Counted from the first letter of the stretch, positions 1,901 through 49,318 are shown. The stretch is DNA of 64,000 nucleotides from Clostridia bacterium (GCA_045545475.1 JAZQAZ010000040.1:1-64000), one strand, 5' to 3'. Notes: a model not told the origin generated them from the letters alone. Program-made: numbers and translations.

Positions 1901-2044
1901 TGTCGTTCGTTGTAGTTTCACTCACTAAAACCCTTTTCGGGTTTTATCACCGATTATCACCAAGTAAATGCTCCGCAAAACTTGGTTGCATCGGTGTCGT
2001 TCGCAAAACTTCGTTTCGTAAAACGCTTTGTGGCGTTTCACTTC
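1901..2044 (-). repeat. Modular hairpin repeat, locus 1 (modules C-B-A), flanked by 12-bp direct repeat ACTCACTCCTTT
   Basis: 1915-2015 is identical to 17147-17247; direct repeat at 1889-1900 and 2045-2056. Confidence 0.9.
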
Positions 2045-2059
2045 ACTCACTCCTTTCCA

Positions 2060-2104
2060 AAAAAGCCCGACACAGCGGATTAAACCGCCGCATCGGGCTT
2101 TTTA
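2060..2104 (-). terminator. Intrinsic terminator after the major capsid gene
   Basis: AAAAAGCCCGA...TCGGGCTTTTT inverted repeat with T tracts. Confidence 0.75.
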
Positions 2105-2112
2105 GTTATCAT

Positions 2113-3114
2113 TTATGCAAGTTCAGCTGCACCTGTTACGCCGCCTGCCATAGCAAAACGCCAGTCGTTGAAGCCTGCACCGAATCTTGAATAACCGTTC
2201 CAACGGTTGTTGTCGGTGTTCTCGTCAATGGAGCTCTTAACCTCTAAGTCTACCCTGTCGGACCATATTGCACCGGCGTGACTCTCATTATAGTTGGAGT
2301 CAAGGATAATCCAGGGAATGCTGTCCTTTGAAATAAACTCGTTAAGATAGTTCCAAACGATTATTCTCCAGCGTCCGAAAAGATAGTTGAAACCGTTATT
2401 TGCAGTGTTAGGATCCTTGTCCGCACCGATAACGGCAAAAACTGTCTTTTTAGCATTGTGTTCATTGGGAATAACAATGGTGTCGGGGCTTAAGCCTAAA
2501 ATTTCATTGTTGTCTCCTCTGAAATTCTGCATAGCAACTTCCGCTCTGCCTAAGGCATCTTCGGAAAATGCGTTTCCGCACACGTTGGACTGTGTTTTCT
2601 TCGCATCAATCTTGGAAGGATGCTTACTTGAGAACACAGGAAGCTTGTCCGCACCTGTTGCATCAAATTCCTTGCCGGAAAAGGCAAACTTTGTTTCGCC
2701 CTTTAAGCCGGCACCATAAAGTGCAGCACCAAAGCGTTCTCTTGTTCTGTAGTAGGATGCAATAAAGTTCTTGGGCTTCTGCTTAAAGTCCACAATCTTA
2801 GTGTCATCCACCATTTCACGGGTGATAACAAAACGGTCCTTCCAGGTTTCGTGTTCAATGGTCTTTGAAAAACCTTCAACCATACCGTCTTCGGGGTATG
2901 CACCGCCCTCACCAACAGGCTTAAAGCCGTCCATAGCTGTAAGAGAAGTGTACTTCTCAGAAAAATGTTTACTCTTTCCCATAAGGAAAAGATGCTTCAG
3001 AACACTCTGCTGCTCACAAGCTTCCGCATTGTGTTCGCATAAAAGACGTATTGCCATCTGGTCATTTTTAAAGATGGATTCCGCTACGCCTGCGCTTTCA
3101 GAAAATATAGGCAT
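2113..3114 (-). CDS. Major capsid protein
   Basis: 333 aa; follows scaffold and small decoration gene; PDTIVIP and SRFGAGFNDWR motifs typical of HK97-fold (Mu gpT-like) capsids. Confidence 0.8.
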   Translation of the reverse strand: MPIFSESAGVAESIFKNDQMAIRLLCEHNAEACEQQSVLKHLFLMGKSKHFSEKYTSLTAMDGFKPVGEGGAYPEDGMVEGFSKTIEHETWKDRFVITREMVDDTKIVDFKQKPKNFIASYYRTRERFGAALYGAGLKGETKFAFSGKEFDATGADKLPVFSSKHPSKIDAKKTQSNVCGNAFSEDALGRAEVAMQNFRGDNNEILGLSPDTIVIPNEHNAKKTVFAVIGADKDPNTANNGFNYLFGRWRIIVWNYLNEFISKDSIPWIILDSNYNESHAGAIWSDRVDLEVKSSIDENTDNNRWNGYSRFGAGFNDWRFAMAGGVTGAAELA

Positions 3115-3128
3115 TTATTTCACTCTCC

Positions 3129-6744: not shown

Positions 6745-6941
6745 TTGCGTTCATTATTTCGTAAAACACATTTCGTGTTTTCCGTCCGGCTTGGTTTCAT
6801 TCGCTAAAACACTGTTCGTGTTTTTACGCTCATAAAACTTCGCCTCCGTAAATATGAGTAAAAAACTGTGCCCATCGAAGGCAAGTTTTTTGCTCAAAAA
6901 TTTTTCACACCCTTCACGGGTTAAGAAAATTTTTATCGCAT
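6745..6941 (-). repeat. Modular hairpin repeat, locus 2 (two A modules plus the post-stop two-hairpin motif 6850-6941)
   Basis: AAAACAC-ATTTC-GTGTTTT, AAAACAC-TGTTC-GTGTTTT, AAAACTTCG; 6850-6941 aligns with 9868-9958. Confidence 0.8.
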
Positions 6942-6953
6942 GCTATGTTGCAT

Positions 6954-9130: not shown

Positions 9131-9273
9131 ATCAAAAGCCTCTTCGGCTTTTGCACGTTTCACTCGTTAAAAGCCTTTTGGGCTTTTCTTCGGCAATTTT
9201 CGTCTCGGTCGTAAAAATTGCCTATGACTCGCAAAACTTCGCTCCGTAAAAACTTTGTTGTTTTTACTTCGCT
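9131..9273 (-). repeat. Modular hairpin repeat, locus 3 (modules C-D-A-A)
   Basis: AAAAGCC-TCTTC-GGCTTTT, module D 9192-9226, CTCGCAAAACTTCGCTCCG, GTAAAAAC-TTTGTT-GTTTTTAC. Confidence 0.85.
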
Positions 9274-23188: not shown

Positions 23189-23264
23189 TGGTGACCCATC
23201 GGAGATTCGAACTCCGGACACCTTGATTAAAAGTCAAGTGCTCTGCCAACTGAGCTAATGGATC
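23189..23264 (-). tRNA. tRNA-Lys(TTT), probable prophage attachment gene
   Basis: Cloverleaf, CTTGA-CTTTTAA-TCAAG, encoded CCA. Confidence 0.97.
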
Positions 23265-23271
23265 ATATTAT

Positions 23272-23346
23272 TGGCTGGGCTGGCTGGACTCGAACCAGCG
23301 AATGCCAGAGTCAAAGTCTGGTGCCTTACCACTTGGCGACAGCCCA
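23272..23346 (-). tRNA. tRNA-Gln(TTG)
   Basis: Cloverleaf, CCAGA-CTTTGAC-TCTGG, CCA. Confidence 0.96.
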
Positions 23347-23381
23347 GTATAACTCAAGGCGTAATACCAATATAAAAAAAA

Positions 23382-23459
23382 TGGGGTGGATAGTGGGACT
23401 CGAACCCCCGGCCTCCAGAGCCACAATCTGGCGCGCTAGCCAACTGCCCCATACCCACC
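23382..23459 (-). tRNA. tRNA-His(GTG)
   Basis: G-1, CCAGA-TTGTGGC-TCTGG, C73, CCA; two stem mismatches. Confidence 0.92.
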
Positions 23460-23468
23460 ATAAAAAAA

Positions 23469-23545: not shown

Positions 23546-23552
23546 AAAATAA

Positions 23553-27507: not shown

Positions 27508-30231
27508 ATGGGATTATTCACTAAAATCTTCGGTACTCACAGTGACCGTGAAATAAAAAAGATAATGCCTGTTGTTGAAAAAATTTTGGCTTTGGAACCC
27601 TCCATGCAGGCACTTTCCGACAGCGAGCTTTCTGCCCAGACAGAAAAATTCAAAGAACGCTATAAAAACGGAGAAAGCTTGGATTCCCTTCTTCCCGAAG
27701 CCTTTGCCACGGTAAGGGAAGCTTCTTTCAGAGTTTTGGCAAAGAAACCCTTCCCAGTTCAGCTTATGGGCGGTATAATTCTCCACGAAGGAAGAATTGC
27801 CGAAATGAAAACAGGTGAAGGAAAAACCCTTACCGCAACGCTTCCGGCATACCTTAATGCAATTGCAGGAGAAGGCGTCCACGTCGTTACCGTAAACGAA
27901 TACCTTGCCTCCACCCAGGCAGAAGAAATGGGAAAACTTTTTAACTTCCTTGGTCTATCCGTGGGCACCACTTTAAGCGGAAGAAGTCCCGAGGAGAAAA
28001 GAGCTGCATACAATGCCGATATCACCTACGGAACAAATAACGAATTCGGCTTTGACTACCTGCGTGACAATATGGTTATCTATAAAGAAAACATGGTTCA
28101 GCGTCCGCATGCCTTTGCAATTGTTGACGAAGTAGACTCCATATTAATCGACGAGGCAAGAACCCCTCTTATTATAAGCGGTCGTGGCGAGGAATCATCC
28201 GTTCTGTACACCCATGCAGACCGATTTGCCAAAACGCTCAAAGCTTTCTATATCAAGGAAACCAACGACAAGGAAAGTAACGATAACATTGATGCTGACT
28301 ATATCGTTGAAGAACGCACCAAATCTGTAACGCTTACCGCAAACGGTATTAAAAAGGCAGAAATAGCATTTAATATTGAAAACCTGTCTGATCCGGAAAA
28401 TATGACCTTAAGCCACCATATCAATCAGGCTGTAAGGGCAAATTCTATTATGAAACGTGACGTTGACTATGTGGTGAAGGACGGAGAAATCATCATTGTT
28501 GACGAATTTACAGGCCGACTTATGTACGGAAGACGATATAACGAAGGCTTGCATCAGGCAATAGAGGCAAAGGAAGGCGTAAAAGTAGCAAACGAATCAA
28601 GAACGCTTGCAACCATCACTTTCCAGAATTATTTCAGACTTTATAAAAAGCTTTCGGGTATGACCGGTACCGCCATTACAGAGGAAGAAGAATTCAGGGA
28701 AATATACCGACTTGACGTTGTATCAATCCCCACAAACCGACCCATGATAAGAGTTGACCATGATGACAGAGTTTATAAAAACGAACGTGGCAAATTTATG
28801 GCAATTGCCGCACAGGTGGAAGAGTGCCACAAAAAAGGTCAGCCGATTCTGGTAGGTACCATTTCCATTGAAAAATCAGAAGCACTTTCTGCTCTCTTAA
28901 AGAAAAAAGGTATCCCCCATCAGGTTCTTAATGCAAAACACCACGAAAAGGAAGCTCATATCGTCGCTCAGGCCGGAAGAAAAGGTGCAGTTACCATATC
29001 CACCAATATGGCCGGCCGTGGAACAGATATTCTTCTTGGCGGTAATCCGGAAATCATGGCTCTTGATCAGATGAGAAAAGAAGGCTATGAGGAATCCGTT
29101 GTTGCCGAAGCCAATATCCACACCCCCACCGTCGATCCTGAAATTCTTTCCGCCAGAGAGCACTTCAATGAGCTCTATAAGGAATTCAAGGTCGAAACAG
29201 ACAAGGAGCACGAAGAGGTTGTATCTTCAGGCGGTCTTTTCATCCTTGGTACCGAGCGTCATGAATCAAGACGAATTGACAATCAGCTCCGTGGACGAAG
29301 CGGAAGACAGGGTGATCCCGGCGAATCAAGATTTTTAATCGCACTTGACGATGATCTGATGCGACGTTTCGGCTCCGACAGGATAGAGACCATCATGAGC
29401 ATGACAGGTTTTTCCGATGATGAGCCTATTGAAGCAAAAATGCTTTCCGGCGTAATAGAAAACGCTCAGAAGAGAGTTGAAAGCAACCACTTCGCTGTCA
29501 GACGTAATGTTCTAAGATACGACGATGTCATAAACCAGCAAAGAAGTGTAATGTATGCACAGCGTGCAATGGTTCTTGATAACAAGGATTTGAAGCAGAA
29601 CATCATATCCATGGCGGAAAAGGTGTTCTCCGAAATCTTAAGCGTATATGCTTCAGACAACTATGCCGATAACTGGGAATGGGAAGGTTTAAATGCCGCT
29701 GTTTCCAAAATACTCCCCCTTGAAGCTCCATTAAACTATGACCGAGACACATATGACCGTCTCTCACGAGAATGGGTTCTTGAAGATTTAATGAAGCTTT
29801 TCAATGAAAACTATGAAAAGCAGGAGGAAATCTTCGGCGACGAAATGCGTGAGGTTGAGCGTGTAATCATGCTTCAGGTGGTTGACCGTCACTGGATGCA
29901 GCATATCGATGACCTTGCACAGCTTCGTGAAGGTATTTCTCTACGTGCCTATGCACAGCACGATCCGGTGGTTGAATATCAATCTGTAAGTTCAGAAATG
30001 TTCGATGAAATGAATGCATCAATCAGAGAGGAAACCGTAAGCGGAATTATGCATGTAAGAAAAAGAAGCGATGCAACCGAGCGTAAACAGGTTGCAAAAG
30101 CGGTCTCCACAGGCGAAAGCAAGGAAGTTGCAAGAAAACCCGTGGTAAACGAAGAAAAGAAAGTTGGCAGAAACGATCCCTGTCCCTGCGGCAGCGGCAA
30201 GAAATATAAACAATGTTGTATGGAAAAATAA
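27508..30231 (+). CDS. secA: Preprotein translocase ATPase SecA
   Basis: [43 protein letters not shown]. Confidence 0.99.
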
Positions 30232-30360
30232 ATTCAATAAAGAATTTATTTTTCCAAAATTGTGCGAGCGTTGCCGACGTAGCCGAGTTTTACGGAGTAT
30301 TTACTCGGCGTAAGTCGGCTGTAAAACGCGAACAGCCTTTTGTGCACTGCTCGGAACAAA
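30222..30360 (+). repeat. Modular hairpin repeat, locus 6 (C-B-A), inverted relative to the other loci
   Basis: GAAAAATAAATTC-AATAAA-GAATTTATTTTTC; GCCGAC..GCCGAGT-TTTACGGAGTATTT-ACTCGGC..GTCGGC; AAAACGC-GAACA-GCCTTTT. Confidence 0.85.
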
Positions 30361-32171: not shown

Positions 32172-32211
32172 CTCATTTATGACACCTTGACTTTTAATCA
32201 AGTGCTCTTTC

Positions 32212-32327
32212 TTGACAAATTTAAATAAATCTGCTACAGTATATGTAGTAGTTGAAATGTTTTTTGTGGAGCCGCCGCTACGAGTTTTCTCGAAAGTGCG
32301 TCCTCCAACATTATCAGCTACTTTTTT
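32212..32327 (+). ncRNA. Rod-shaped sRNA 2 (about 32247-32327) with promoter
   Basis: TTGACA-17-TG.TACAGT; AGTAGTTGA...TCAGCTACT followed by T tract. Confidence 0.6.
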
Positions 32328-32370: not shown

Positions 32371-34356
32371 TTAATCAAGTTCTTTTTTTCCTGTATAAAG
32401 TTCGTAATAGCGTCCCTTTAATTTGAGAAGCTCGTCGTGAGTTCCCTCTTCCATAATTTCGCCCTTTTCAAGAACAATAATTTTATCCGCATTTCTTACG
32501 GTGGAAAGACGGTGAGCAATTACAAAGGTGGTACGCTCCTTCATAAGGCGATCCATACCGTGCTCGATGTGCATTTCCGTACGGGTGTCGACGGAGCTTG
32601 TCGCCTCGTCAAGCACTAAAATCGGAGCCTTACTTATTGCCGCACGGGCAATGTTAAGTAGCTGCCTCTGACCCTGGGAAAGGTTTTGACCATCTCCCAT
32701 AATTTCCGTTTCGTAACCCTTTGAAAGCCTCATAATAAAGCTGTGGGCACTGGCGGTTTTTGCCGCTGCAATAACATCTTCATCCGTGGCATCAAGTCTG
32801 CCATATCGGATATTTTCCATAATTGTACCGGAGAAAAGATGGGTATCCTGAAGCACCATGGCAATGTTTTCACGAAGGGATTCCCTCGTATATCCCTTAA
32901 TCGGTACACCGTCAATGGTTATCTCTCCGCTTCCCACATCGTAAAATCTGTTGATAAGATTTGTGATGGTTGTCTTTCCCGCACCGGTTGACCCTACAAA
33001 GGCAACCTTTTCACCGGGACGTGCCACAACGGAAAGATTTTTAAGGATAAGCCTTTCTTCCGTGTAGCCGAAGTTTACGTTTTTAAGGATAACCTCGCCC
33101 TTTATTTCGCCCATTTCTACTGCATCAGTACTGTCTGCTATCTCCGGAGAGGTATCCATAACCTTAAACACACGCTCCGCACCGGCAAGAGCGGAGAACA
33201 CATTACTCATTTGCATGGAGATCATATTAATAGGCTGGGCAAACTGCCTGGAATAGTTGGCAAATACCGTAAGTGCACCGGGGGTGAATCCGCTTGTTAT
33301 CATCATAATACCGCCGATTCCCACAGTAATGGCATAGGTAATCTGGCTTGTATTTCCCATAACGGGCCCCATAATACCGCCGTAAAACTGAGCTTTAAAC
33401 TGAGTGTCACGAAGATCATTGTTGAGAAGCAAAAACTCATCCTCGCATACGCTTTCGTGGTTAAACACCTTAACAACCTTCTGACCTGTTACGCTTTCCT
33501 CAATATAACCGTTAACCGCACCCAATGATGCCTGCTGACCTTTGTAGAAGCGACGGCCTCTTTTAGATATTGCCGCTCCGCCGAAAACAAAGATTGGCAC
33601 AAATAAAACGGTAACCATTGTAAGTACCCAGTTGGTTGTTATCATGAATACAAATGTACCAACAAGGGAGATAGAGCCTGAAATAAGCGATACAAGAGAG
33701 TTGTCAAGCATCATACCGATGTTGTCAACGTCGTTGGTAAAACGGCTCATAACGTCGCCTGTACTCTCGTTGTCAAAATACTTTAACGGGAGGGACTGAA
33801 GCTTTGCAAAAAGCTCGTTTCTTATCCTCTCCAAAGAGCCTTGGGTGATGGAAAGCATAAGTCTCGACTGAAAATATCCGGATAAAGCACCCACAAGATA
33901 AATTGTAAGAAGAATAACAATTCCCGCTATCATGTAGGTTAATACCTCGTAAAGCCTGCCTTCGGCAAAGATTCCCGAAAGAAACTCCGTTTTGGTAAGC
34001 GAGGTAATAATTTTGTCTGCAAACTCCTCAAGAGCACTTACTTCAACCTCTGCATCAGGCGATGCCGTAAGGGCAATTTTGTCTATTATGGGAGCCAGCA
34101 TGAATGAACCGAAAAGTGCTGTCAACGTATGAGTAACCATAAGAAGCATAACAAGTGCAAGCTTGAACTTATAGCTTGCCATATACTTCCAGAGTCTCTT
34201 AACTGTTTTACTTGTATCCTTAGGCTTTCCTCCGAGACCTCTCGCCATAGGTCCACCTCTGCCCGGGCCACCCGGTCCTCTTCCCTGAGCACCCGTAGCC
34301 ATATTATTATGGCCGGTGTTATACTGCTTTTTAAGTTCGTCAATATTTCTTGCCAT
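32371..34356 (-). CDS. ABC exporter, fused permease-ATPase
   Basis: GSTGAGKT, LSQGQRQ, LDEATS, IAHRLS. Confidence 0.95.
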   Translation of the reverse strand: MARNIDELKKQYNTGHNNMATGAQGRGPGGPGRGGPMARGLGGKPKDTSKTVKRLWKYMASYKFKLALVMLLMVTHTLTALFGSFMLAPIIDKIALTASPDAEVEVSALEEFADKIITSLTKTEFLSGIFAEGRLYEVLTYMIAGIVILLTIYLVGALSGYFQSRLMLSITQGSLERIRNELFAKLQSLPLKYFDNESTGDVMSRFTNDVDNIGMMLDNSLVSLISGSISLVGTFVFMITTNWVLTMVTVLFVPIFVFGGAAISKRGRRFYKGQQASLGAVNGYIEESVTGQKVVKVFNHESVCEDEFLLLNNDLRDTQFKAQFYGGIMGPVMGNTSQITYAITVGIGGIMMITSGFTPGALTVFANYSRQFAQPINMISMQMSNVFSALAGAERVFKVMDTSPEIADSTDAVEMGEIKGEVILKNVNFGYTEERLILKNLSVVARPGEKVAFVGSTGAGKTTITNLINRFYDVGSGEITIDGVPIKGYTRESLRENIAMVLQDTHLFSGTIMENIRYGRLDATDEDVIAAAKTASAHSFIMRLSKGYETEIMGDGQNLSQGQRQLLNIARAAISKAPILVLDEATSSVDTRTEMHIEHGMDRLMKERTTFVIAHRLSTVRNADKIIVLEKGEIMEEGTHDELLKLKGRYYELYTGKKELD

Positions 34357-34359
34357 GAC

Positions 34360-36093
34360 TCACACCTCCTTCCCCGACATCTGCGAGGTATAAATTTCCT
34401 TATATTCCTCGTTGGATGAAAGAAGCTCGTCATGAGTTCCGACACCGGTAATCACGCCGTCGTCCATAACAATTATTTTATCAGCTTCCATAACAGAAGA
34501 AATTCTCTGTGCAATAATAATTTTGGTAGAATCCGGAATTTCTGCCTTAAGTGCCGCCCTTATCTTTGCCTCAGTCGCCGTATCAACAGCACTGGTGGAA
34601 TCATCGAGTATCAAAATTTTCGGCTTTTTTATTAAAGCTCTTGCAATGCAAAGTCTCTGTTTCTGACCTCCGGATACGTTCACACCGCCCTGCTCAAGCT
34701 CCTTTTCATAGCCTTCAGAGGAAGCTTCGATAAATCCTCTGGCCTGAGCACTTTCACTTGCCTTTACAATATCTTCATCGGTGGCGTTTTCATCGCCCCA
34801 TAATAAATTATCACGAATAGTACCCGAGAATAAAATGTTTTTCTGAAGCACCATACCAACGCCGTCTCGTAAGTTTTTAAGACTGTATTCCGATACCGGC
34901 ACACCGTCAACCAAAACTTCTCCCTCATCGGGATCGTACAGTCTCGGAATCATGGAAACCAACGTGGTTTTACCGCAGCCGGTGGAACCGATTATACCCA
35001 CCGTCTCCCCTGCTTCTATTTTCACATTGATGTTTTTAAGCACTTCGTCGGGACTGTCCTTGTAATAGCGGAAGGACATATCACGAAATTCCACTTCTCC
35101 ACGTGTAACTTTAAGTTCGGGATATTTTGCATCATCGTCAGTAATATCCGACTTTTCATCCAGAACCTCTTTTATTCTTCTTGCGGAAGCAAGAGCACGG
35201 GATGAATGCATAAGCATCATTGTTACCATCATTAATGATGATAAAATCTGAGTAACGTATGTAATAAAGGAAGAAAGGTCGCCTATAGGCATGGGAAAAT
35301 CCACATCAAGCACCATTTTTCCGCCAAACCACAAAACTGCAATGGTAGTAAAGTTCATAAATATGGTCATTACGGGGCCCATAAAAATCATAACTTTAAC
35401 TGCAGACATATTCGCTTCCTTAAGATCGGCATTGGCGTTTCCAAACTTTTCGATTTCATGCTGTTCACGGACAAAGGATTTTACAACACGGACATTTGTG
35501 ATATTCTCCTGCACCGTTGAGTTAAGCTTATCTACCTTGACCTGCATTTTTCCGAATCTGGGAAAACCTGTTCTTATGATGAATATAACAGAAACAAGCA
35601 TAAGAGGAATTGTAACAGCTAAAACCACCGCAAGAGATGGCTTTAACCTTATTGCCATAATAAGTGCACCGATAAGCATACCGGGCGAACGAAGGAACAT
35701 ACGAAGCAGCATATTCACAAAGTTCTGCACCTGGGTTACGTCGTTGGTAAGACGGGTAACAAGGGAGCCGGTTGAAAATTTGTCAATATTGGCAAAGGAA
35801 AAGCCCTGTACCCTTTTATAAATATCCTGTCTCAAATCTGCCGCAAAATTAACCGACGCCTTTGCTCCGAAATATGCACCGCCGACACCGCCTGCCATCA
35901 TAATGAGGGCAAGACCAATCATACAAAGTGACATTTCAATGGAAAAGCCTATACCCTTTGCAACGCTTTCATTGATAATTCCGGCAAGAAAGCGAGGCAT
36001 AAAAACTTCGCCGATAACCTCGATAATCATACAAAGAGGTCCCAAGATGAAATACAATAGATACGGTTTTATGTATTTAGTCCACCGTTTCAT
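34360..36093 (-). CDS. ABC exporter, fused permease-ATPase (degenerate-site partner)
   Basis: GSTGCGKT, VSGGQKQ, LDDSTS, IAQRIS. Confidence 0.95.
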   Translation of the reverse strand: MKRWTKYIKPYLLYFILGPLCMIIEVIGEVFMPRFLAGIINESVAKGIGFSIEMSLCMIGLALIMMAGGVGGAYFGAKASVNFAADLRQDIYKRVQGFSFANIDKFSTGSLVTRLTNDVTQVQNFVNMLLRMFLRSPGMLIGALIMAIRLKPSLAVVLAVTIPLMLVSVIFIIRTGFPRFGKMQVKVDKLNSTVQENITNVRVVKSFVREQHEIEKFGNANADLKEANMSAVKVMIFMGPVMTIFMNFTTIAVLWFGGKMVLDVDFPMPIGDLSSFITYVTQILSSLMMVTMMLMHSSRALASARRIKEVLDEKSDITDDDAKYPELKVTRGEVEFRDMSFRYYKDSPDEVLKNINVKIEAGETVGIIGSTGCGKTTLVSMIPRLYDPDEGEVLVDGVPVSEYSLKNLRDGVGMVLQKNILFSGTIRDNLLWGDENATDEDIVKASESAQARGFIEASSEGYEKELEQGGVNVSGGQKQRLCIARALIKKPKILILDDSTSAVDTATEAKIRAALKAEIPDSTKIIIAQRISSVMEADKIIVMDDGVITGVGTHDELLSSNEEYKEIYTSQMSGKEV

Positions 36094-36551
36094 TTAATCT
36101 GTCCTTTCTCTTTTAGATTTTCTTTCATTTTTTTAAGTGTTTCGATAAATGCAACAAGCTCATCCTCCGTTACTCCCGTAACCATATCCTTGTCGATGGA
36201 GTCGAAAATTTCCCGTGAACGCATAACGACGTTTCTGCCCTTTTCTGTGATTGTAACATCGTTGTATCTTGCATCCTTGTCGGAGGTTTTTCTCTGGATA
36301 TACCCTCCCTCTATAAGTTTCTTAACAGAAACTGCTGCAGCCGCAGGCGTTATGGAAAGAGACTCTGCCAATTCTTTCTGCGAAACCGCCTTTCCGAAAC
36401 GGTAAAGATGCATAAGCATAACGTGCTGACTTCTGTGAAGCTTAATTTCTTCAAGCCTCTTTTCAACAACCTTTTTGTGCAAACGGTCCGTGCACATAAA
36501 AAGCCCCACCGCCTCGTGATAGAGACTTTTTTCCTTTGTATTTTTCTCCAT
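36090..36551 (-). CDS. MarR family regulator
   Basis: SQKELAESL.IT...L..GGYI.R....DAR...V..T.KG. Confidence 0.9.
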   Translation of the reverse strand: MEKNTKEKSLYHEAVGLFMCTDRLHKKVVEKRLEEIKLHRSQHVMLMHLYRFGKAVSQKELAESLSITPAAAAVSVKKLIEGGYIQRKTSDKDARYNDVTITEKGRNVVMRSREIFDSIDKDMVTGVTEDELVAFIETLKKMKENLKEKGQIK

Positions 36552-36746: not shown

Positions 36747-36751
36747 ACTTC

Positions 36752-36868
36752 TTGACAAATTCAAATAAATCTGCTACAGTATATGCAGAGGTTAGATTTT
36801 TCGATGTGTATTCTGAAGTCGGATTTGTTCCGGCTTTAAGGACACCTGAAATGTCAACCTCATTTTTT
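36752..36868 (+). ncRNA. Rod-shaped sRNA 3 (about 36787-36868) with promoter
   Basis: Promoter 36/37 identical to that of sRNA 2; AGAGGTT...AACCTC followed by T tract. Confidence 0.6.
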
Positions 36869-36920
36869 ATTTCCCACCTTGCATTTCACACTTAAAAAAC
36901 GCCCGCTTCCGGGCGTTTTT

Positions 36921-37472
36921 TTATCTCCTGTAGCACATACAATCCTTTGAATGTCCGTTTATTATCCCCATGGACTGCAGATAGGAATATATAATGGTAG
37001 AGCCCACAAAGCTCATCCCTCGCTTTTTAAGGTCCGCCGATATGGCATCTGAAAGCGGCGATGTTGTCCTTTCCGTAAACTCCTCATTAATAATTTCGGG
37101 TGCAAAGCTTCTCAAATATCCGTAAAAGGAGCCCTTCTCCTTCACGATTTCCTTAAATATCCTGCTGTTTTTTATTGCCGCCTTAATTTTAAGACGGTTT
37201 CTTATTATGAGGGGATTTTCCATAAGCTCCGCAATTTTTTCTTCGCCATAGGCACTTACCTTATCAATGTCAAAATTGTCAAACGCCGCCCTGAAATATT
37301 CCCTTTTGTTAAGGATACATTCCCAGGAAAGCCCCGCCTGAAAGGATTCCAAAATTAAAAGTTCATAAAGCCTTCCATCCTCCGTCAGAAGCCTTCCCCA
37401 TTCCTCATCGTGATATTTAATGTATTTTTCATTTTTAAGATTAACCCAGCTGCACCTTTTACACATAAGCAC
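36921..37472 (-). CDS. tag: DNA-3-methyladenine glycosylase I
   Basis: RCSW..YHDEEWG, ESFQAGLSW, IIRNRLKI, H..DC. Confidence 0.95.
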   Translation of the reverse strand: MLMCKRCSWVNLKNEKYIKYHDEEWGRLLTEDGRLYELLILESFQAGLSWECILNKREYFRAAFDNFDIDKVSAYGEEKIAELMENPLIIRNRLKIKAAIKNSRIFKEIVKEKGSFYGYLRSFAPEIINEEFTERTTSPLSDAISADLKKRGMSFVGSTIIYSYLQSMGIINGHSKDCMCYRR

Positions 37473-37519
37473 CGCTCCTTAAAGAAAAGGGAAAAGCTGT
37501 GCTTTTCCCTTTTATCCGT

Positions 37520-37725
37520 ACCGTCGTAAAAAATTGCTTTGTTGCAATTCCTAAGAAAACCCTCTTCGGGTTTTCTTTTTTTATTAATCAGCCTCGCTAA
37601 AAACCTTTTCGGCTTTTAACGACACCTTTCGCTGATTTAAATGCTCCGCAAAAAATCAGCACGGTGTCCACGCTCGCTGATTCTTCAGTAAAAAAATTGC
37701 TTTGTTGCAATTTTTTTACTTTCGC
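37520..37725 (-). repeat. Modular hairpin repeat, locus 7 (C-B-A-A-C)
   Basis: GACACC..GCTGATTT-AAATGCTCCGCAAA-AAATCAGC..GGTGTC; two TTGC-TTTGTT-GCAA hairpins. Confidence 0.85.
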
Positions 37726-38834
37726 CAGAATCCCTTATCCTTCTTTATGCCTGCATAATTTTTATCGCCGGTCATTTCGGCAAATTCTAAAAGCTTCGCC
37801 TTCTGTTCCTTGCTTAAGTTTTTGGGCGTATCAACGATAATCGTTACATATTCGTCGCCCTTCTGAGGGTTATGAAGCTTCTGAATTCCCTTTTCCTTAA
37901 GACGGAAAATGGAATTTGACTGTGTTCCCTCCGGGATGGTAAATTCCACATCGCCGTGAATTGTGGGAACCTGACAGGTTGCACCAAGGGCCGCCTCCGT
38001 TATGCTGATGTGCTTTTCAACATAAACATCAAAGCCCTTTCTCTTAAAGGTTTTGTCGGGAGTAATTGCAACGGTTACAAGTAAATCGCCGTTGGGACCT
38101 CCACGAAGGCCGCATTCGCCCTCGCCTGACACGCTCATCGTCTGTCCGTGATCGATACCGGCCGGAATATTAACCTCAACTGTCTTCGTTCTTCTTACGC
38201 TTCCTCTTCCACGACAGCTTTCGCAGGGAGTTTTTATAATCTTACCGCTACCAGAGCAGCTCTGACAGGTTGTAACCGTGGAGAAAAAGCCACCCATGGT
38301 GTTTCTCACCTGACCTGTACCGTGACAAACCGAGCATGTTTCAGCAGTAGTTCCCGCCTTAGCACCGGAACCTCCGCAAGTGTCGCACTTTTCGCTTCTG
38401 TAAACCTCTATTGTCTTCTTACAGCCGAAAGCCGCCTCGGAAAACGTAAGGTTTATCTGCTTATTCAAATCGTTTCCGCGTACAGGGCCGTTTCTTCTCT
38501 GACCGCCGCCACCGAAAAAGCTTCCGAAAATGTCACCAAGGTCAACATCAAAGCCTCCGAAGCCGCCGTTAAAGCCACCTCCGTATCCGCCGCCCTGAGT
38601 CTGATCAAAGGCCGCGTGACCGAAACGGTCGTACTTTGCCTTCTTATCCGCATCGGATAAAACCTCATATGCCTCGTTTACTTCCTTAAACTTAACTGCC
38701 GCACTCTCAGGATCGTCCTTATTCAAATCGGGGTGGTACTTTTTCGCAAGTGAACGGTACGCCTTTTTAATTTCTTCGTCCGTCGCTCCCTTGGAAACGC
38801 CCAGCACCTCGTAATAATCTCTTTTATCTGCCAT
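37716..38834 (-). CDS. dnaJ: Chaperone DnaJ
   Basis: HPD, G/F region, four CxxCxGxG motifs. Confidence 0.99.
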
Positions 38835-42535: not shown

Positions 42536-42669
42536 ATTATTCTCCCATTTCTAGATAAGTATTGATAATTAATTTTTTCAAAAAATACTAGTAAATATGC
42601 ATAAAAACATTTTATGACTACAGAAAAATATACGATTAAGTATAAATATTTTTCTGTGGAGGTTATAAA

Positions 42670-43926
42670 ATGGCAAAGTTAAAGGATTTAAAAGATTTAG
42701 TTCAAAATGTCAATTTGACAGAAGAACAGATTGCAGAACTTCTCACTATCATTATTGATATGAAGAAGAAAAATGACAATGCTGAAAAAGGTAAGGTCGT
42801 GTTACCACCCGAATTAGTGGCATTATTAGAAAAATGCACTATAAACAGAGGTGAAGAATTAGTTTGTCCTTTATGTGGTAGCACTTCTGTAAATAAAAAT
42901 GGTAAAAAAGATGGTAGACAAAGATACTTATGCAAGTCTTGTGTTAAAACTTTTGGAGATACTTATGGAACTTTGCTTTATCATTCAAAATTAACAGTAA
43001 AGCAATGGATTGAGTTTTTGACCTTAACCCTTTATAATGCAAGTCTAAACAGAATTAAAAAGGATATGGGTATCAACCTCGCAACTGCTTGGTACAACAG
43101 ACACAAGGTATGCTCTCTTATAATGCAGTTAGAAGGCGAACAAGATAGTTTTCCCTCTATTGTTGAAGGTGACGAGTTCTTTATTCCGCTGTCTTTCATT
43201 GGTGAGAGAAACAAGGCTTTCTTCATTGAAGAATTGAAAAGAATGCCACGTCACCATCGTAACAGAGCAGCAAAGTTTGAATATATTGAACAGGCTGGCT
43301 ATGAAGTTGCAGAGGTTGAAGATATGGATGGCTTTTACGATGATGAAACTATCCCCTCTAATCTTTCAGTATCAAAGGAATTGAATGGTCTTGATAAGGA
43401 AGAAAAGAGAAAAAGAGGTATCAGCAACGAACAGGTTTGTGTTATTACTGCTGTGGATAAATTACAGAATGCTTATCTCGCGCCTACTTGCTTGGGTAAG
43501 ATTGAACCTAAACATTTAGAACAGCATTTGAGTGGCAAGTTTGCTGAAGATAGTATTCTTGTTACTGATAGTTTGAGAGCATACAGAACATTTGCTAATA
43601 ACAACAAGATACATTTAAGACAGATACCTTCAGGCAGACATACTTCTGGTCCATTCAATTTAGGTAAGGTTAATTCCTATCATTCCAAAATGACTGACTT
43701 TTTTGACAGATACAAAGAAGTTGGCTCAAAGTATTTAGACCACTACCTCGCTTTGTTTAGGTGGCAAGAAAAAGGGTTCAATTCCAGAACAGCAGACAGA
43801 GTTAATATGTTACTTGATATGCTGACAAAAGGTGTACCCGAAAAAGTGGAATTCCAAAAATTGAAATATAGACCTTTTCCTTTTGATACTAAAAATATTG
43901 TGAGGGTAGAGACAATTTCCGCATAA
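42670..43926 (+). CDS. IS1595 family transposase
   Basis: CPLC..C..C zinc ribbon, HTH, VEGDEFF, KRG, LVTDSLRAY, VNSYHS, YLDHYL. Confidence 0.92.
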   Translation: MAKLKDLKDLVQNVNLTEEQIAELLTIIIDMKKKNDNAEKGKVVLPPELVALLEKCTINRGEELVCPLCGSTSVNKNGKKDGRQRYLCKSCVKTFGDTYGTLLYHSKLTVKQWIEFLTLTLYNASLNRIKKDMGINLATAWYNRHKVCSLIMQLEGEQDSFPSIVEGDEFFIPLSFIGERNKAFFIEELKRMPRHHRNRAAKFEYIEQAGYEVAEVEDMDGFYDDETIPSNLSVSKELNGLDKEEKRKRGISNEQVCVITAVDKLQNAYLAPTCLGKIEPKHLEQHLSGKFAEDSILVTDSLRAYRTFANNNKIHLRQIPSGRHTSGPFNLGKVNSYHSKMTDFFDRYKEVGSKYLDHYLALFRWQEKGFNSRTADRVNMLLDMLTKGVPEKVEFQKLKYRPFPFDTKNIVRVETISA

Positions 43927-44076
43927 TGTGGTATAATTATATTGAAAATTGGAACATTTTTCTAATTTTTCAGTCTATATGAGTAGAAAGAGTTAGACAA
44001 ACTTGAATTTGAAGGTGAATCATAAAACAACGCTATGCTTCTTGAAGAAGTAATAGAAAGAGGAGAATTTTGGATA

Positions 44077-45234
44077 ATGAAAAAAAATATAAAAATATTT
44101 ATTATTTTATCTCTCATTTGCTGTATTGGTGTCTTATGTTATTTATTAACCACTAATTTTGAGAGTAGTAAAAAAGTATCTGTGCACAAAGAAATAGGAA
44201 ACGAATTGCAAGATGATATAAGTGCTATGTTGTGTTATAGCGAAGGTCATTCAGAAATTGCAAAAAGCGAAACCTTTTTTTACACAAAAGATTACCTAAA
44301 TAAATCTGAAAATCAATATTATTTAGGTGTTTCACACGTTTTCCCTGATGAAATAATTACAGAAAGATTTGCGATTCCTTTAGGATATAAAAATAGTAAG
44401 GAAATGGCATCTAATTTAGGACAAATTCTTGATTATACTAATTATGAGAAAGCAGAAATACTAATTTTAAATGATTGGTATAATGAAAATAAGAAAATTA
44501 TTGTTGCTTATATTATAGATAATGATTTGAAAACAGTTGAATTTTCAGTTGAAGACGAAGCTTATTTAGGAACATATGTAGATAATAGCACAATTTATAC
44601 TTTGATAAATTCAAAGAACCAATTGATAATTTCTTCTATTGACACGGCAAATAACAATAATGAAATAACAACTGTTTCTTATTCAGGACTTGTTCGAGAT
44701 AGAGCAGATTTGTCAGGCTCATATACCCTTATAAAAAACAGTATTTTATATTTGGGCGAAGCTACATACGATACAAAAAGTGATACAGTCTTTTCTACAA
44801 TTTCTATGCTTAATTTAGCTAATAATGAAACTTATAGTATTACATTTGAAAATGAATGGATTTATAATCTTTTGCATAATGATAATGAAATAGTTGCATT
44901 GATGGGTGCTGGAAAAGATGATATAGGATATTATCAAGATATAGTGTGCAATATTATTGATTTAAATTTAGATGCTATATCTACTCATTCGATTATGGGA
45001 CTACCTGATAATATTGATACAGTGAATTTTGCAGATAGAAGTCAAATATATAATGGGATACTTTACACAATAATAAACGGAACAACTTTAGGGAAAAATC
45101 ATCTACTTGCTTATAACATAAAAGAAAAAGAAATTATTTTTCAAGCTGAACTTGAAACAAAAATGGTAAATAAATATTTATTTGATTGGAATTTTTATAT
45201 TTATAGCAATAATAATTATTACGAAATACCCTAA
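44077..45234 (+). CDS. IS passenger: membrane-anchored/secreted beta-rich protein of unknown function
   Basis: AGGAG RBS, MKK plus hydrophobic N-terminus, beta-propeller-like composition. Confidence 0.75.
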   Translation: MKKNIKIFIILSLICCIGVLCYLLTTNFESSKKVSVHKEIGNELQDDISAMLCYSEGHSEIAKSETFFYTKDYLNKSENQYYLGVSHVFPDEIITERFAIPLGYKNSKEMASNLGQILDYTNYEKAEILILNDWYNENKKIIVAYIIDNDLKTVEFSVEDEAYLGTYVDNSTIYTLINSKNQLIISSIDTANNNNEITTVSYSGLVRDRADLSGSYTLIKNSILYLGEATYDTKSDTVFSTISMLNLANNETYSITFENEWIYNLLHNDNEIVALMGAGKDDIGYYQDIVCNIIDLNLDAISTHSIMGLPDNIDTVNFADRSQIYNGILYTIINGTTLGKNHLLAYNIKEKEIIFQAELETKMVNKYLFDWNFYIYSNNNYYEIP

Positions 45235-45436
45235 TTGTTGAAGTAGAAAAGAAAGCCAAGGGAATTTATATGAAGTGTAAATGAAGCATTAATAAAGCGA
45301 GATTGTGAAAAATAAATTCCAATTTGTTGAACTAAATACATATATGATATGGTGCATACTATAAATGTATCAATATTTCTGTATGCACCTTTTTGTATAC
45401 TTTTACACATCAATACTTATCTAGAAATGGGAGTAA

Positions 45437-46015: not shown

Positions 46016-46156
46016 AAGTCTTATCCTTTCCCGCCTCAGGCGTCTTTCTCTGTTTTTGAAAAGTAGTATATCACAAAAACCAAAACAATGCAAGTAAAAG
46101 AATTTTCTTTTTTTGGACAAATTTTGTTAGTAAGAATTTATCTTTCAATCGAATTA

Positions 46157-46608
46157 TGTCATTCTTCCGTGCACAAAAGGCTTTTTGCCTTTTGCTGTCG
46201 ACTTACTTCGGGCAGTGCACAAAAGGCTTTTCGCCTTTTGCTGTCGACTTACTCCGGGCAGTGCACAAAACCCTCTTCGGGTTTTGATTTTTTGTTTCGC
46301 TCACTAAAACGCTTTTCGCGTTTTACTGTCGACTTACAGCAATTTAAATGCTCCGCAAAAAATTGCTACGTCGACCACGTTCGCAAAACTTCGTTCCGTA
46401 AATTGCTTTGTTGCAATTTACTGCACTCATTTCTTTATGGAAATTTTCCAGAAAGCTTTTCGCTTTCTGCTTTTTTTGTTTCACTCGCTAAAAGGCTTTT
46501 CGCCTTTTTCCACCCATTTACGCCAAGTAAATGCTCCGCAAAACTTGGCTACATCGGTGACGCTCGCAAAACTATCGTATAAAAATTTCTTTATGGAAAT
46601 TTTTATAC
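46157..46608 (-). repeat. Modular hairpin repeat, locus 8 (two C-B-A units plus 46-bp tandem A units)
   Basis: Tandem at 46169-46214 and 46215-46260; B loops near 46346 and 46529; half TGTC repeat at 46157. Confidence 0.9.
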
Positions 46609-48144
46609 TAAAAACCAGCTATATGCTTCCACATAAACACCCGTTGGGCTTATTTTCGGAATAACAATGTTTTTCTTCGCAGCAACCTCTGTAGTTTTGA
46701 AATAAATTCCCACAAGCGGAGCACTTTCCGCCATAGCTTTACCAAACTTCTTTGCCTCAGAAAGAAGGCTTTCACCTTCAGCCGCCGCAAGTGCCGCAAT
46801 TCTCATATCCATAACTCCGCCGGAATAACCAAATACATTGGCACTTCCGCCGCTACCTATAAGAAAAGCAAAATTAGCAGCATTTCCTATGGTACATCCT
46901 CCAATAAAAGCATCATAATTACCCGATGTAAGTCTTTCCTTATAGCTTGAATATGATAAAATTTCCACATCCGCAGAAATTCCGTAATTAAGCAACCAAT
47001 GGCTAAGGAAATTAGCAATACCGACACGGACAGAATCATCTTCATTTACTATTATGCTGAATTTTAAACTTTTTCCGTCTTTTTCATAAACGCCGGCTCC
47101 GCCCATTTTCCATCCGTCTCTCGTGAGTATATCCGAAACCTCTCCTATATCCGTCTCGTCAGTCTCAAATGCGTAAAAATACGCCGCCGGATTTACAGGA
47201 GTAGAAGCAGCTGTTTCCACCTCTTCAAATTCATCCGCCAATGAAGCCTTTCTGCAGGCGGCAAAAATTGCTCTTCTTGCCGATTCCTCCGAGAAAAGAT
47301 TTCCTGCCGAATTAAATCCGAGAAATTCAAATCTGTTGCTTTTACCTTTGTAAATCTTAATTCCTTTTCCCGACTTATCAGCAGTATTATCAGGATTTAT
47401 GAGTATGTCGGTTTCTCCCGATAAAAAGCTGGTTTCAGCTTTTATATCCGTATTCATATACAAAACTTCAATTTCATCTATATACGGACGCCCCAAATGA
47501 TATGAGCTGTTTTTTTCACACACCAGAGAAGTATAGCCAACATCCTCCTTGCGGCAGATAAACTGGCCTGTTCCGTTTGGCATATCCATTTTTCCGGGAG
47601 AACCATCCTTTATTATTGGAAACGTAAGCATTGATGCAAAATTAGCTTCAGGATTGTAAAGTTCTATCACAATTTCTCCCGAATCTGATATTTCTGCATT
47701 TTTAATATTTCTGACACAGCCGGAAAAACTTCCTCCATTGTATCTTATATAATCAATGGTATACTTAACGTCATAATTGGTAAGTGACGATCCGTCTGCA
47801 AAGGTGATACCGCCCTTTATTTTAAGTCTGGCCGTGAGATAATCATCAGACATGGAATACTCCGACACAAGATTTTTCTTTACGTTAAAATCATCATCCA
47901 AAGTAAAAAGACCATCATAAAAAAGATACAAAAGTTCTCTGCAGCTTTCATAGTTTGTGGCAAGGGGATTAAACGTGTCGGGTTTTCTTGAAGAAACCCT
48001 TATTTTTCCTCCCTGTATCATGTTCTCCGTTGATGTTTTTTCCGTCTCCGTTACATTTTCAGTAATTTCTTCTGTAACTTCCTTGCTGCAACCCACACAA
48101 AAAAGCATGGCGATAACAGTAATCATTGTAAAAATTTTTTTCAT
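46603..48144 (-). CDS. Family 5 ABC substrate-binding lipoprotein
   Basis: Lipobox VGC, TFNPL, FADGS.LT..DV..T, PNGTGQF. Confidence 0.9.
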   Translation of the reverse strand: MKKIFTMITVIAMLFCVGCSKEVTEEITENVTETEKTSTENMIQGGKIRVSSRKPDTFNPLATNYESCRELLYLFYDGLFTLDDDFNVKKNLVSEYSMSDDYLTARLKIKGGITFADGSSLTNYDVKYTIDYIRYNGGSFSGCVRNIKNAEISDSGEIVIELYNPEANFASMLTFPIIKDGSPGKMDMPNGTGQFICRKEDVGYTSLVCEKNSSYHLGRPYIDEIEVLYMNTDIKAETSFLSGETDILINPDNTADKSGKGIKIYKGKSNRFEFLGFNSAGNLFSEESARRAIFAACRKASLADEFEEVETAASTPVNPAAYFYAFETDETDIGEVSDILTRDGWKMGGAGVYEKDGKSLKFSIIVNEDDSVRVGIANFLSHWLLNYGISADVEILSYSSYKERLTSGNYDAFIGGCTIGNAANFAFLIGSGGSANVFGYSGGVMDMRIAALAAAEGESLLSEAKKFGKAMAESAPLVGIYFKTTEVAAKKNIVIPKISPTGVYVEAYSWFLV

Positions 48145-48157
48145 ATCTTCATTTCCT

Positions 48158-48952
48158 TTATTCAAGCTCTATTATTGCACCCAACGATCCGAATTTCCCT
48201 TTTCCTGCTCTGCTGGAAAAATAAAGCTGATTGTTACAAACCGTGCATTCTCCTGCCAGGGAAATATTTTCGTCCTTAAGCCCCGCTTCAATAAGGGTGC
48301 GTCTCACTGCTTCCCATAAATCGGCCCGATAATGTATACCGTCGCCTTCTTCTTTTATAAATGACAAATCCCGGAAGCTTTCCGAAAACGCATCATATAC
48401 ATCTTTTTTAATTTGAAAACAGCACTTTCCGATGGATGGACCTATTGCTGCCAGAATATCTGCCGGGTCGCTTCCGTATTCATTCACCATCGCCTTAACA
48501 GCATTCAGCACTATTTTTTTCACAGTGCTCTTCCATCCTGAATGTATGGATGCACACACCTTTTTTTCTCTGTCATACAAAAGCACCGGCACACAATCGG
48601 CAGATGTGGAAAGAAGGGGGATTCCGCCTTTATCTGTAACGAGAGCATCACAGCCGACAGATACCTTTACAGGCTCTTTTAAAATAGCAACCTTACTGTC
48701 ATGCACCTGATTTGTTCTGCTTAAGTTTTCTTCTGTAAATGAAAGAGCTGAGCATACGATGTTTACATTCTTTATAACAAATTCATCTCTGTCTCCCCTT
48801 AAAAAACCCAGATTTAAAGACGACAGATGTTCCTCTTCCGAAACCCCTCCGAGTCTCGTAGTGAAACAGTGTTTTACGCCCTCCTTTTCCAAAAGGGGAC
48901 TTATAAGATATTCAAAATTTCCGCATTTTCTGTGTTCAAAACCAATTTTCAT
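48158..48952 (-). CDS. pgeF: Peptidoglycan editing factor PgeF (YfiH/YlmD)
   Basis: FTTRLGGVS, QVH, ADCVPVL, HSGWK, GPSI..CCF. Confidence 0.9.
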   Translation of the reverse strand: MKIGFEHRKCGNFEYLISPLLEKEGVKHCFTTRLGGVSEEEHLSSLNLGFLRGDRDEFVIKNVNIVCSALSFTEENLSRTNQVHDSKVAILKEPVKVSVGCDALVTDKGGIPLLSTSADCVPVLLYDREKKVCASIHSGWKSTVKKIVLNAVKAMVNEYGSDPADILAAIGPSIGKCCFQIKKDVYDAFSESFRDLSFIKEEGDGIHYRADLWEAVRRTLIEAGLKDENISLAGECTVCNNQLYFSSRAGKGKFGSLGAIIELE

Positions 48953-48984
48953 AGTTTCTCCTCTGGCTATCCGGCTTTCACCGG

Positions 48985-49318
48985 TTTTCGTGCAAAAGGC
49001 TGTTCGCCTTTTTTCTGCAGTTCTTTCGCAGTTATCGCACAAAACCCTATGCTTCGCTCCGGGCTTTCGTCGTCTGCGGAACCCGCCTTTCGGCACGTTC
49101 CTCGCTTGCCTATGCTTCGCTCCGCAAAACGCCTTATTGCGTTACTCCTGCACAAAAGGCTATTCGCCTTTTGATACTGATTTGTTTCACTCGCTAAAAC
49201 CCTGTTCGGGTTTTAACACCGACTTCCGACAATTTTAATGCTCCGCAAAAAATTGTCACGTCTCCACGCTCGCAAAACTTCGCTCCGCAAAACGCCTTAT
49301 TGCGTTTTGCTACGCTCA
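48985..49318 (-). repeat. Modular hairpin repeat, locus 9
   Basis: A modules with loops TGTTC and TATTC, B loop near 49236, C module GCAAAACGC-CTTATT-GCGTTTTGC. Confidence 0.85.

Follow-up and report, generated by a model that had tools for sequence, protein, structure and literature searches.

Within a 64,000-nt stretch of Clostridia bacterium DNA (GCA_045545475.1, JAZQAZ010000040.1:1-64000; hereafter the window), we found a family of composite hairpin repeats in which loops and junctions are conserved while the stems covary. The observation was first made in an annotation from the sequence alone (the first-pass annotation), and it is real and clearly beyond chance. We propose with moderate confidence, arguing function by analogy, that the repeats would be co-transcribed 3'-end or intercistronic RNA hairpin arrays of the kind represented by REP (repetitive extragenic palindrome), BIME (bacterial interspersed mosaic element), BOX and SPRITE, spreading by recombination. 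This reading fits a single-strand structure with wobble asymmetry of the RNA type, conserved loops, a bias towards the sense orientation and a position in the terminator slot or between cistrons. The family is previously undescribed, yet by its kind it belongs with the lineage-specific mosaic hairpin repeats such as REP/BIME and BOX.

The window is part of contig C40 (73-kb in total) of the assembly, here G000 (2.74-Mb, 50 contigs, 40.8% G+C). Since secA, dnaK and other host genes of C40 occur once each in the assembly, the contig belongs to the G000 genome. According to Pfam annotation, a prophage occupies approximately positions 1-23051, with genes for capsid, terminase large and small subunits, ParB-like, YopX, a repressor/anti-repressor pair, helicase and integrase (21954-23051), and adjoins a tRNA cluster (23192-23626). 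The host genes that follow include gpmI, secA, prfB, an ABC exporter pair, tag, dnaJ-dnaK-grpE-hrcA and clpP and, further on, genes for a solute-binding protein, a yfiH-like protein, mgtC and others. Related strains were found in DNA runs recorded as animal gut metagenomes.

A repeat scan of the window recovered a 120-nt family at 1900, 17132 (96%), 46463 and 49169 and a 31-nt family of eight copies. Further, a covariance model built from four full units (R1) gave 11 matches in the window, starting at 1905, 6784, 9147, 9900, 17137, 30225 (plus strand), 37576, 46157, 46284, 46468 and 49174. The repeats therefore occur where the first-pass annotation had placed them and, as it had stated, in both prophage and host DNA. 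Its three hairpin modules, A, B and C, were likewise recovered. Perfect AAAA-N3-N5-N3'-TTTT hairpins (module A) numbered 53 in the genome, 16 of them on C40, where the one at 26013 is unrelated to the family. The exact loop of module B was present five times, with one variant at 30289, and the linker core five times, exclusively on C40. Hairpins of the form C-AAYAAR-G (module C) numbered 31 genome-wide, compared with two for the reversed loop. When the nine loci were searched against the genome using blastn-short, 47 of 57 high-scoring pairs fell on C40.

We read the anatomy of the unit in the sense strand, which is the minus strand for every copy in the window except that of secA-prfB. Hairpin C has a stem of 6-15 bp, nearly all A-U, a C-G closing pair and a hexaloop AAYAAR. 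It is followed on the 3' side by the spacer ACGGARCGAA and then by helix P1, the 5' strand of which (GUUUUGC) pairs with GUGAAAC of the tail GYGAGUGAAAC, a conserved U.G and G.U included. Within P1, the junction GAGCG leads to hairpin B. Its outer stem (6-7 bp) and inner stem (7-8 bp) are separated by an internal loop with GYA on its 5' side and GNAA on its 3' side, and the hairpin is capped by the loop UUUGCGGAGCAUUU. In the variant B loop ACGGAGU, a G-C to A-U exchange is kept, and this argues for a mini-helix within the loop. Hairpin A, (U)AAAA-NNN-GAANA-NNN-UUUU(A), is followed by the junction AGYGA. Because GUUUUGC pairs with GUGAAAC, P1, B and A form a three-way junction. The linker described between C and B is thus present as a sequence, but is no mere linker, since its 3' half is one strand of P1.

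The basic unit of approximately 80-90 nt consists of hairpin C, the spacer and a long hairpin (P1 tipped by A). Among the aligned R1 matches, C plus the P1/A hairpin is the general unit across genomes and B is an optional insert, present in units of G000, G002, G003 and G004 (handles denote genomes of the genus). Units occur singly or head-to-tail, and many matches lie in arrays with a period of 93-121 nt. P1 was wholly exchanged to AAUCAGC/GCUGAUU in the dnaJ copy and is AUUGUGC/GUGCAAU in the secA copies of relatives. Extra modules were also present, namely A2, an A-type hairpin followed by a GUGCAC tail, in 46-nt tandem repeats at 46169-46285, and D and E, after terL (6855-6950) and at 9872-9965. 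The loci in the window are as follows (R2 is a model of the minimal unit).

1905..2043, minus strand: full unit C-P1-B-A-P1' (R1 166.6 bits; fold; 96% identical to the 17132 copy over 120 nt).
6763..6950, minus strand: post-terL mosaic (R1 30.3 bits; R2 46.6 bits; fold).
9133..9269, minus strand: unit with a variant B hairpin having another loop (R1 60.5 bits).
9826..10023, minus strand: degenerate mosaic combining D/E modules with a C-like hairpin and an A-like one whose loop is AAAAA (R1 match weak at 25.6 bits, E 0.03; repeats; fold).
17137..17274, minus strand: full unit where the prophage early-left genes and the plus-strand genes diverge (R1 154.5 bits).
30221..30360, plus strand: secA-prfB unit (R1 94.2 bits; comparison with at least three tandem intact units in G002).
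37529..37720, minus strand: post-dnaJ array (R1 97 bits; fold).
46157..46289, minus strand: 46-nt tandem repeats upstream of clpP (repeat scan; fold).
46284..46423, minus strand: full unit (R1 136.9 bits).
46468..46606, minus strand: full unit (R1 153.4 bits).
48994..49312, minus strand: post-mgtC array (R1 101.7 bits; repeat scan).

The first of these units lies between the prophage capsid gene (2113-3114) and a collagen-repeat gene (768-1883). In sense order, the post-terL mosaic comprises D, E, a P1/A unit without B (6784-6908) and a second A hairpin (6763-6781); here D has a long A/T stem with an ACCC-GUGAA-GGGU hairpin at its tip, and E is a terminator-like hairpin. The unit at 9133..9269 carries an upstream-flanking A hairpin at 9134-9152, and the locus follows a terS-like gene region. 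In the secA-prfB unit, the C hairpin (15 bp) includes the secA stop codon and the B loop is the variant UUUACGGAGUAUUU. The post-dnaJ array contains a C hairpin with the dnaJ stop codon, a full unit, A2 and a second C, and an ordinary terminator follows it. Upstream of clpP there are two full 46-nt repeats (46169, 46215), each made of an A2 hairpin and GUGCACUGCCCGRAGUAAGUCGACAGC, and a further A2 hairpin at 46267. The C hairpin of the unit at 46468..46606 begins on the stop codon of the solute-binding-protein gene (46603-48165). The post-mgtC array consists of a full unit (49174-49312), A2 at 49154, a duplicated C-like segment (49115-49143) and an A hairpin at 48994. A 164-aa open reading frame (46088-46582, plus strand) runs through the hairpin arrays on their antisense strand; gene finders could take it for a gene, but it is almost certainly spurious.

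Covariation was measured on 42 aligned, related units from nine genomes, seven of them with strong matches. Standard pairs filled 95.9% of the pair cells, compared with 69.8% when partners were shuffled (0 of 500 shuffles reached the observed value), and a control in which partners were slid by 1-3 columns gave 34-51%. Changes on both sides were found in 34 of the 35 pairs, and stem exchanges were directly readable in MAFFT alignments. G.U or U.G cells numbered 52 and A.C or C.A cells five (17 and five without two conserved wobble columns); the sense strand is therefore the folding strand. Further, the sense strand was more stable than its complement in 36 of 42 units (mean -5.05 kcal/mol, Wilcoxon p ~1e-7), and z was below -2 against shuffles in all 42.

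The loops varied little in the same set. The A loop was GAAAA in 11 units, GAACA in 11, GAAUA in 10 and GAAGA in one, so that GAANA has a free fourth base, and its closing pair was C-G in 38 of the 39 units having letters there. The C loop was AACAAA in 25 units and AAUAAA in five. Variable arms around conserved spacers are the reverse of the pattern at a dimeric binding site in double-stranded DNA, and the fold is thus that of a single strand, either RNA or single-stranded DNA. Covariation, the wobble asymmetry and fold energies agree that pairing and loops, not stem sequence, are under selection. One exception to compensation in the A cores, which the first-pass annotation had called mostly compensated, is at ~30333. 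The mismatched A hairpin of the secA-prfB unit is a chimera, explained by a deletion between the loops of A and A2, both of which are intact in G002.

All modules of each locus in G000 lie on one strand. Among the G000 loci between co-directional protein genes, 13 of 17 were in the sense orientation and four were antisense, namely those between a noc/parB-like gene and parA (contig C34), at thrC (C41), at C48:34912 and at C9:38380. In relatives, 29 R2 hits fell in 24 arrays; 17 of these had both flanks called and co-directional, 15 of them sense and two antisense, although several are orthologous to G000 loci and the two counts are not independent. In addition, the array between smpB and the transfer-messenger RNA (tmRNA) gene ssrA in G000 is antisense to both genes. 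Orientation by replication strand was rejected, since only 16 loci agreed with the leading strand deduced from GC skew and nine disagreed, a weaker bias than that relative to gene strand. The secA-prfB copy and that at C48:33414 follow their genes against the skew. Thus, the repeats were described as transcription-oriented, and this held for every copy in the window and most copies elsewhere, but not for the antisense loci; sense orientation is a strong bias, not a rule.

The arrays also keep a particular position. At 21 of 31 sense gene ends, the first hairpin started on the stop codon or up to 17 nt past it; often the TAA was part of the 5' arm, and the last codons were complementary to the 3' arm (secA, dnaJ, pta, sigA, smpB and others). 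As a control, a perfect hairpin of at least 7 bp reached the stop codon in 320 of 2098 G000 genes, and most of these were ordinary A-tract/U-tract terminators. Accordingly, we rejected the idea that C arms in the last codons are the signature of insertion of an inverted copy of the target, since ordinary terminators do likewise. Hairpin C stands where terminators normally do. Its shape is of the A-tract/U-tract kind, but each stem has just 1-3 G-C pairs, and a terminator consensus scan of 36800-37800 flagged no C hairpin on the sense strand. The protein loses its last residue to the unit after smpB in G007 and G009 (RGKE* compared with RGKDY* or RGKEY*).

Comparison of orthologous loci revealed how the arrays change. 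At dnaJ-tag, C, P1 and the tail are near-identical between G000 and G002 (a 1401-nt query spanning the locus was 93% identical), whereas the A stem and both stems of B differ completely; G003 has the G000 version. At secA-prfB, the single unit of G000 corresponds to the intact tandem units of G002, to more than one unit in G003 and to a minimal unit without B in G010. G002 has shorter arrays after mgtC (by ~270 nt, leaving C and A2 only) and after the solute-binding-protein gene (by ~230 nt), and DNA contigs of other strains (runs X1 and X2) lack exactly P1-B-A-P1', with a joint from 46293 to 46417. The modules are thus interchangeable, as described, with tips swapped and unit numbers changed between G000 and G002. 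A unit follows the ABC exporter in G004, where G000 has a plain terminator. Related prophages carry a long, a short or no array after the capsid gene, and the capsid-gene array of G009 contains a tandem duplication that copied the downstream ribosome-binding region.

Other loci were kept. The pta-ackA locus is common to G000, G003 and G007; a comparison of G000 with G007 gave 92.7% identity for its first unit and 88.2% and 83.6% for the coding flanks. Elements stand after the capsid, terL and terS-region genes as well as after host housekeeping genes, and B-type units are concentrated in this 50-kb neighbourhood and its prophage. Tip swaps, gain and loss of units and kept loci together suggest that the arrays change and spread mainly through recombination or gene conversion acting between the loops and junctions, which are short and conserved. 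At four comparisons of filled and empty sites, neither terminal inverted repeats nor direct target duplications were found, and one of them had a 6-nt CGRAAC microhomology. The end helix P1 covaries (GUUUUGC/GUGAAAC, AUUGUGC/GUGCAAU, AAUCAGC/GCUGAUU and others), and is not conserved as the ends of MITEs (miniature inverted-repeat transposable elements) would be.

We considered whether the repeats are instead non-autonomous mobile DNA, and regard this as unlikely; a Y1/HUH enzyme would then read the hairpins in their single-stranded DNA form, as with REP/RAYT or IS200/IS605. Such an element would agree with a count of approximately 26 intergenic loci in G000, with new sites occupied in relatives but empty in G000, with copies in three different prophages, with two 96%-alike copies 15 kb apart and with the tolerance of G.T wobbles in single-stranded DNA. 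However, variable stems with kept loops are the reverse of REP families, and no conserved GTAG/CGTC tag, terminal inverted repeat or direct target duplication was present at the filled and empty pairs examined. The clustering of B-type units in one 50-kb neighbourhood suggests local conversion rather than transposition. RAYT/Y1 as the mobiliser was rejected: PF01797 gave only a 25.7-bit match in G000 (a weak Y1_Tnp-like gene at C30:129759) with no repeats beside it, and there was no co-occurrence across the genus, since G007 has 12 matches without Y1 and G008 a Y1-like gene with one weak match. The statement that no mobilising enzyme is evident therefore stood.

Two further candidates for mobility were set aside. 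Contig C45 of G000 (3687 nt) has repeats at both ends but was rejected as an autonomous element, since it encodes a GH20 hydrolase and a 390-aa protein of unrecognised family and no transposase domain. As a separate observation, GH20 hexosaminidase paralogues and the 390-aa gene (C45 and the start of C30) recur in several genomes of the genus with repeat units between them, and contigs break at these units. An IS1595-like gene in the window (42670-43926) was rejected as a mobiliser because it lies within a 2.9-kb stretch absent from G002 and has no link to the repeats. That stretch (42541-45434), missing from the otherwise collinear G002, contains the IS1595-like gene (Zn_ribbon_InsA and a weak DDE_Tnp_IS1595) and a 399-aa open reading frame (44035-45234) without a Pfam match.

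It is likewise improbable, in our judgement, that the repeats are DNA palindromes without an RNA role, maintained by intrastrand template switching and gene conversion and neutral or selfish in nature. Such a process would account for C, A and B stems that are nearly all Watson-Crick, for the replacement of whole hairpin tips at orthologous loci and for arms reaching the last codons of the upstream gene; at a gene for a 332-aa protein, the two arms, coding and non-coding, carry mirrored changes across three species. It does not account for the excess of G.U over A.C, since the conserved U.G and G.U of P1 are mismatches on the other strand, nor for the conservation of loops and junctions, which template switching leaves unprotected. 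Orientation bias relative to genes and orthologous units conserved at least as well as coding flanks also argue against it.

The A loop resembles the boxB hairpin of lambdoid nut sites, a short stem with a GAAAA or GAAGA pentaloop able to fold like GNRA. These two pentaloops are the loop sequences of lambda boxB. Here, however, the closing pair is an invariant C-G, and the context is the 3' end of genes rather than the region behind early phage promoters, so that the likeness drawn by the first-pass annotation extended to the form of the loop (GAANA on C-G) and not to its context (gene 3' ends, late phage and host operons). PMC12550061 describes a GNRA-like pentaloop with one base looped out for the boxB of P22 and phi21 and for other RNAs. 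Sites of a loop-reading regulator common to phage and host, acting by N/boxB-type antitermination or through another reader of pentaloops or hexaloops, are therefore conceivable but, we think, quite unlikely. The free fourth base of GAANA, the invariant closing pair, the ability of pentaloops to adopt the fold read by N peptides (PMC12550061) and the presence of elements in prophages would fit. Yet the elements stand after genes in late phage and host housekeeping operons, and also in species and at loci without this prophage. Neither a boxA-like partner nor an N-like gene was noticed, although no systematic search for either was made. Hfq and CsrA were rejected as loop readers, each being absent from all 12 genomes of the genus.

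Independently transcribed small RNA genes in arrays are very unlikely: antisense arrays are conserved and G.U pairs lie in the sense strand of the element itself, e.g., in P1 of the G004 smpB-ssrA copy, but most arrays begin on or beside the upstream stop codon with no room for a promoter, no promoter-like site was found in 36800-37800 and no conserved promoter motif was seen by eye upstream of five antisense arrays. A CRISPR or solitary-repeat decoy was rejected, since a k-mer spacing scan found no CRISPR-like array in G000, with the caveat that assemblies can lose arrays. Integron attC sites, hammerhead and other small ribozymes and group II domain V did not fit when their consensus sequences were compared by eye, the formal comparison being that with Rfam.

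Under the RNA-array reading that we prefer, the arrays would form part of the transcript of the upstream gene. The folded RNA block in the terminator slot would probably shield the upstream mRNA from 3' decay, damp read-through into the next gene, or both, possibly with the involvement of a loop-binding protein. Diversification and spread would proceed through recombination between the short conserved loops and junctions, with gain and loss of units and swapping of tips and no classical transposase.

Several points weigh against this proposal. The genes flanking the four antisense loci in G000 are real by Pfam, and the antisense smpB-ssrA array is kept in five species (G000, G004, G007, G009 and G010). 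Conserved antisense arrays fit badly with a purely cis mRNA role and are the main fact that RNA arrays leave unexplained. Since stop-spanning hairpins are common in the genome, the position at gene ends shows only the use of the terminator slot, and the C and A stems, being mostly A-U, may be weak barriers. In two metatranscriptome runs, which gave short and thin contigs, only one X20 contig, at 37527, touched an element. Further, the 42 units were aligned by fitting them to the model, which also decided the strand of each, and because units and loci are related the statistics overstate independence. The covariation figures are accordingly tilted towards the structure, but their margin over the controls is large all the same.

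The family is, as judged from the sequences searched, restricted to one clade of uncultured gut Clostridia and their temperate phages. At E up to 1, R1 matches numbered 31 in G000, 23 each in G002 and G003, 16 in G004, 15 in G010, 12 in G007 and eight in G009; G011 had four, G008 and G006 one each and G005 and G001 none. The R2 model at E up to 0.001 gave the same split, with 7 of 12 genus genomes positive. At E up to 1e-4, R1 found no match in two genomes from other genera of the family or in 125 genomes outside the genus (a class-wide sample with stricter filters and one genome unscored). Exact-pattern searches, which detect only near-identical copies, returned one other genome among 185,579 species representatives and no IMG/VR contig for the strict linker-plus-B pattern, no JGI metagenome for the minimal-unit pattern and no phage record for a unit. 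With Rfam, only tRNAs reached the gathering score in the whole window, and at E up to 5 only chance-level hits were obtained in the element-rich stretches 46100-49400 and 1880-2120; the comparison proposed earlier thus matched no known family. Literature full-text searches returned no description of this hairpin-array family, although a text search cannot find a family by its sequence.

By architecture, the closest likeness is to the BIMEs of enterobacteria, which are composed of REP/PU units: extragenic mosaics of few hairpin and linker motifs after genes or within operons, with a variable number of units. The present family has such mosaic, tandemly variable combinations of extragenic motifs. 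Folded RNA of BIMEs is thought to stabilise upstream mRNA. An attenuator role of BIMEs on downstream expression is cited in PMC3049150, and the tag GTAG/CGTC of REPs is described in PMC3733652. REP stems are conserved in sequence, G+C-rich, tagged and paired with RAYT, whereas here the stems are variable and A/U-rich, the loops are conserved and no RAYT tracks the repeats; GTAG precedes the inner B stem in some copies only. The REP-like element suggested by the first-pass annotation therefore agreed in its mosaic architecture, but the conserved tagged palindrome and the cognate Y1 gene were absent.

Other interspersed repeats were compared in the same way. PMC3049150 describes the pneumococcal BOX (boxA, n x boxB, boxC) as composite and modular with a tandemly variable middle module, SPRITE as a terminator-like interspersed repeat, and both, which belong to a low-GC Gram-positive, as co-transcribed with predicted strong folds. 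BOX has terminal inverted repeats similar to those of ISSpn2, and none were seen in the present family. Compared by architecture only, the present family differs from BOX and SPRITE in its three-way-junction module and in the conservation of loops alone. The bcr repeats (Bacillus cereus group), ERIC, and NIME and Correia (Neisseria) are likewise lineage-specific intergenic repeats with a conserved predicted RNA structure. Compensatory changes are known in bcr repeats. However, these families have other sequences, are mostly single units with terminal inverted repeats (MITE-like) and none has the C / P1-A / B architecture. Some lineage-specific intergenic repeats of this type are transcribed and processed, according to PMC3049150.

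Some features adjoining the repeats were observed in passing. In the five species compared, antisense units lie between smpB and ssrA. The tmRNA gene of G000 (C29:19993-20335) begins 5 nt from such a unit. In both G000 and G009 an antisense C hairpin immediately precedes the 5' end of the tmRNA, and the antisense unit may overlap the ssrA promoter or precursor leader. On contig C34, the antisense array between the noc/parB-like gene and parA (locus L057) is flanked by two sites at ~10290 and ~10720, which read as parS by its consensus (palindrome TGTTTCACGTGAAACA). D and E together form a second repeat, present in the window at 6855-6950 and 9872-9965 and elsewhere in G000 at C44:83240-83402, C12:28036-28071, C2:42-77, C20:24220-24443 and C8:13434-13468. 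In this repeat, D is a long A/T stem with a small G+C tip hairpin bearing a GNRAA-type loop and E is a terminator-like hairpin with a UUCGA loop; copies lie in prophage intergenic regions and at several contig ends, and three are in a G003 prophage array.

Two other repeats occur in the window. A 60-nt repeat (82% identity) at 32209-32268 and 36749-36808 contains TTGACA and a TATAT-type hexamer. One copy is immediately downstream of the ABC-exporter pair (32371-36093), the other immediately upstream of a MarR-family gene (36090-36551), and the repeat may be a duplicated promoter or operator region. At 58986-59470, repeats of 115 nt (92% identity) and 38 nt adjoin tRNA genes (59444-59676) and resemble duplicates of tRNA 3' parts of the sort that integration at a tRNA gene leaves behind.

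A further reading, which we consider unlikely, is that the arrays are RNA targets of a clade-specific putative protein that reads the GNRA-like C-GAANA-G pentaloop and the C-AAYAAR-G hexaloop on any stem sequence. If this is true, the genus would possess a genus-wide layer of post-transcriptional control of 3' ends or termination, adopted by temperate phages for their late genes, and fast swapping of tips would keep many sites functional without mutual sequence homology. The arrays break short-read assemblies of the genus and create spurious open reading frames such as that at 46088-46582. The family adds a structure-conserved repeat of an uncultured gut lineage to a short list comprising REP/BIME, BOX, NIME and bcr, and its signature is clean: all helices covary within one genome, the loops are nearly invariant and the same modules stand in host operons and prophages. 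It is thus a natural test case for distinguishing repeats kept for an RNA function from those merely tolerated, and for movement without a transposase.

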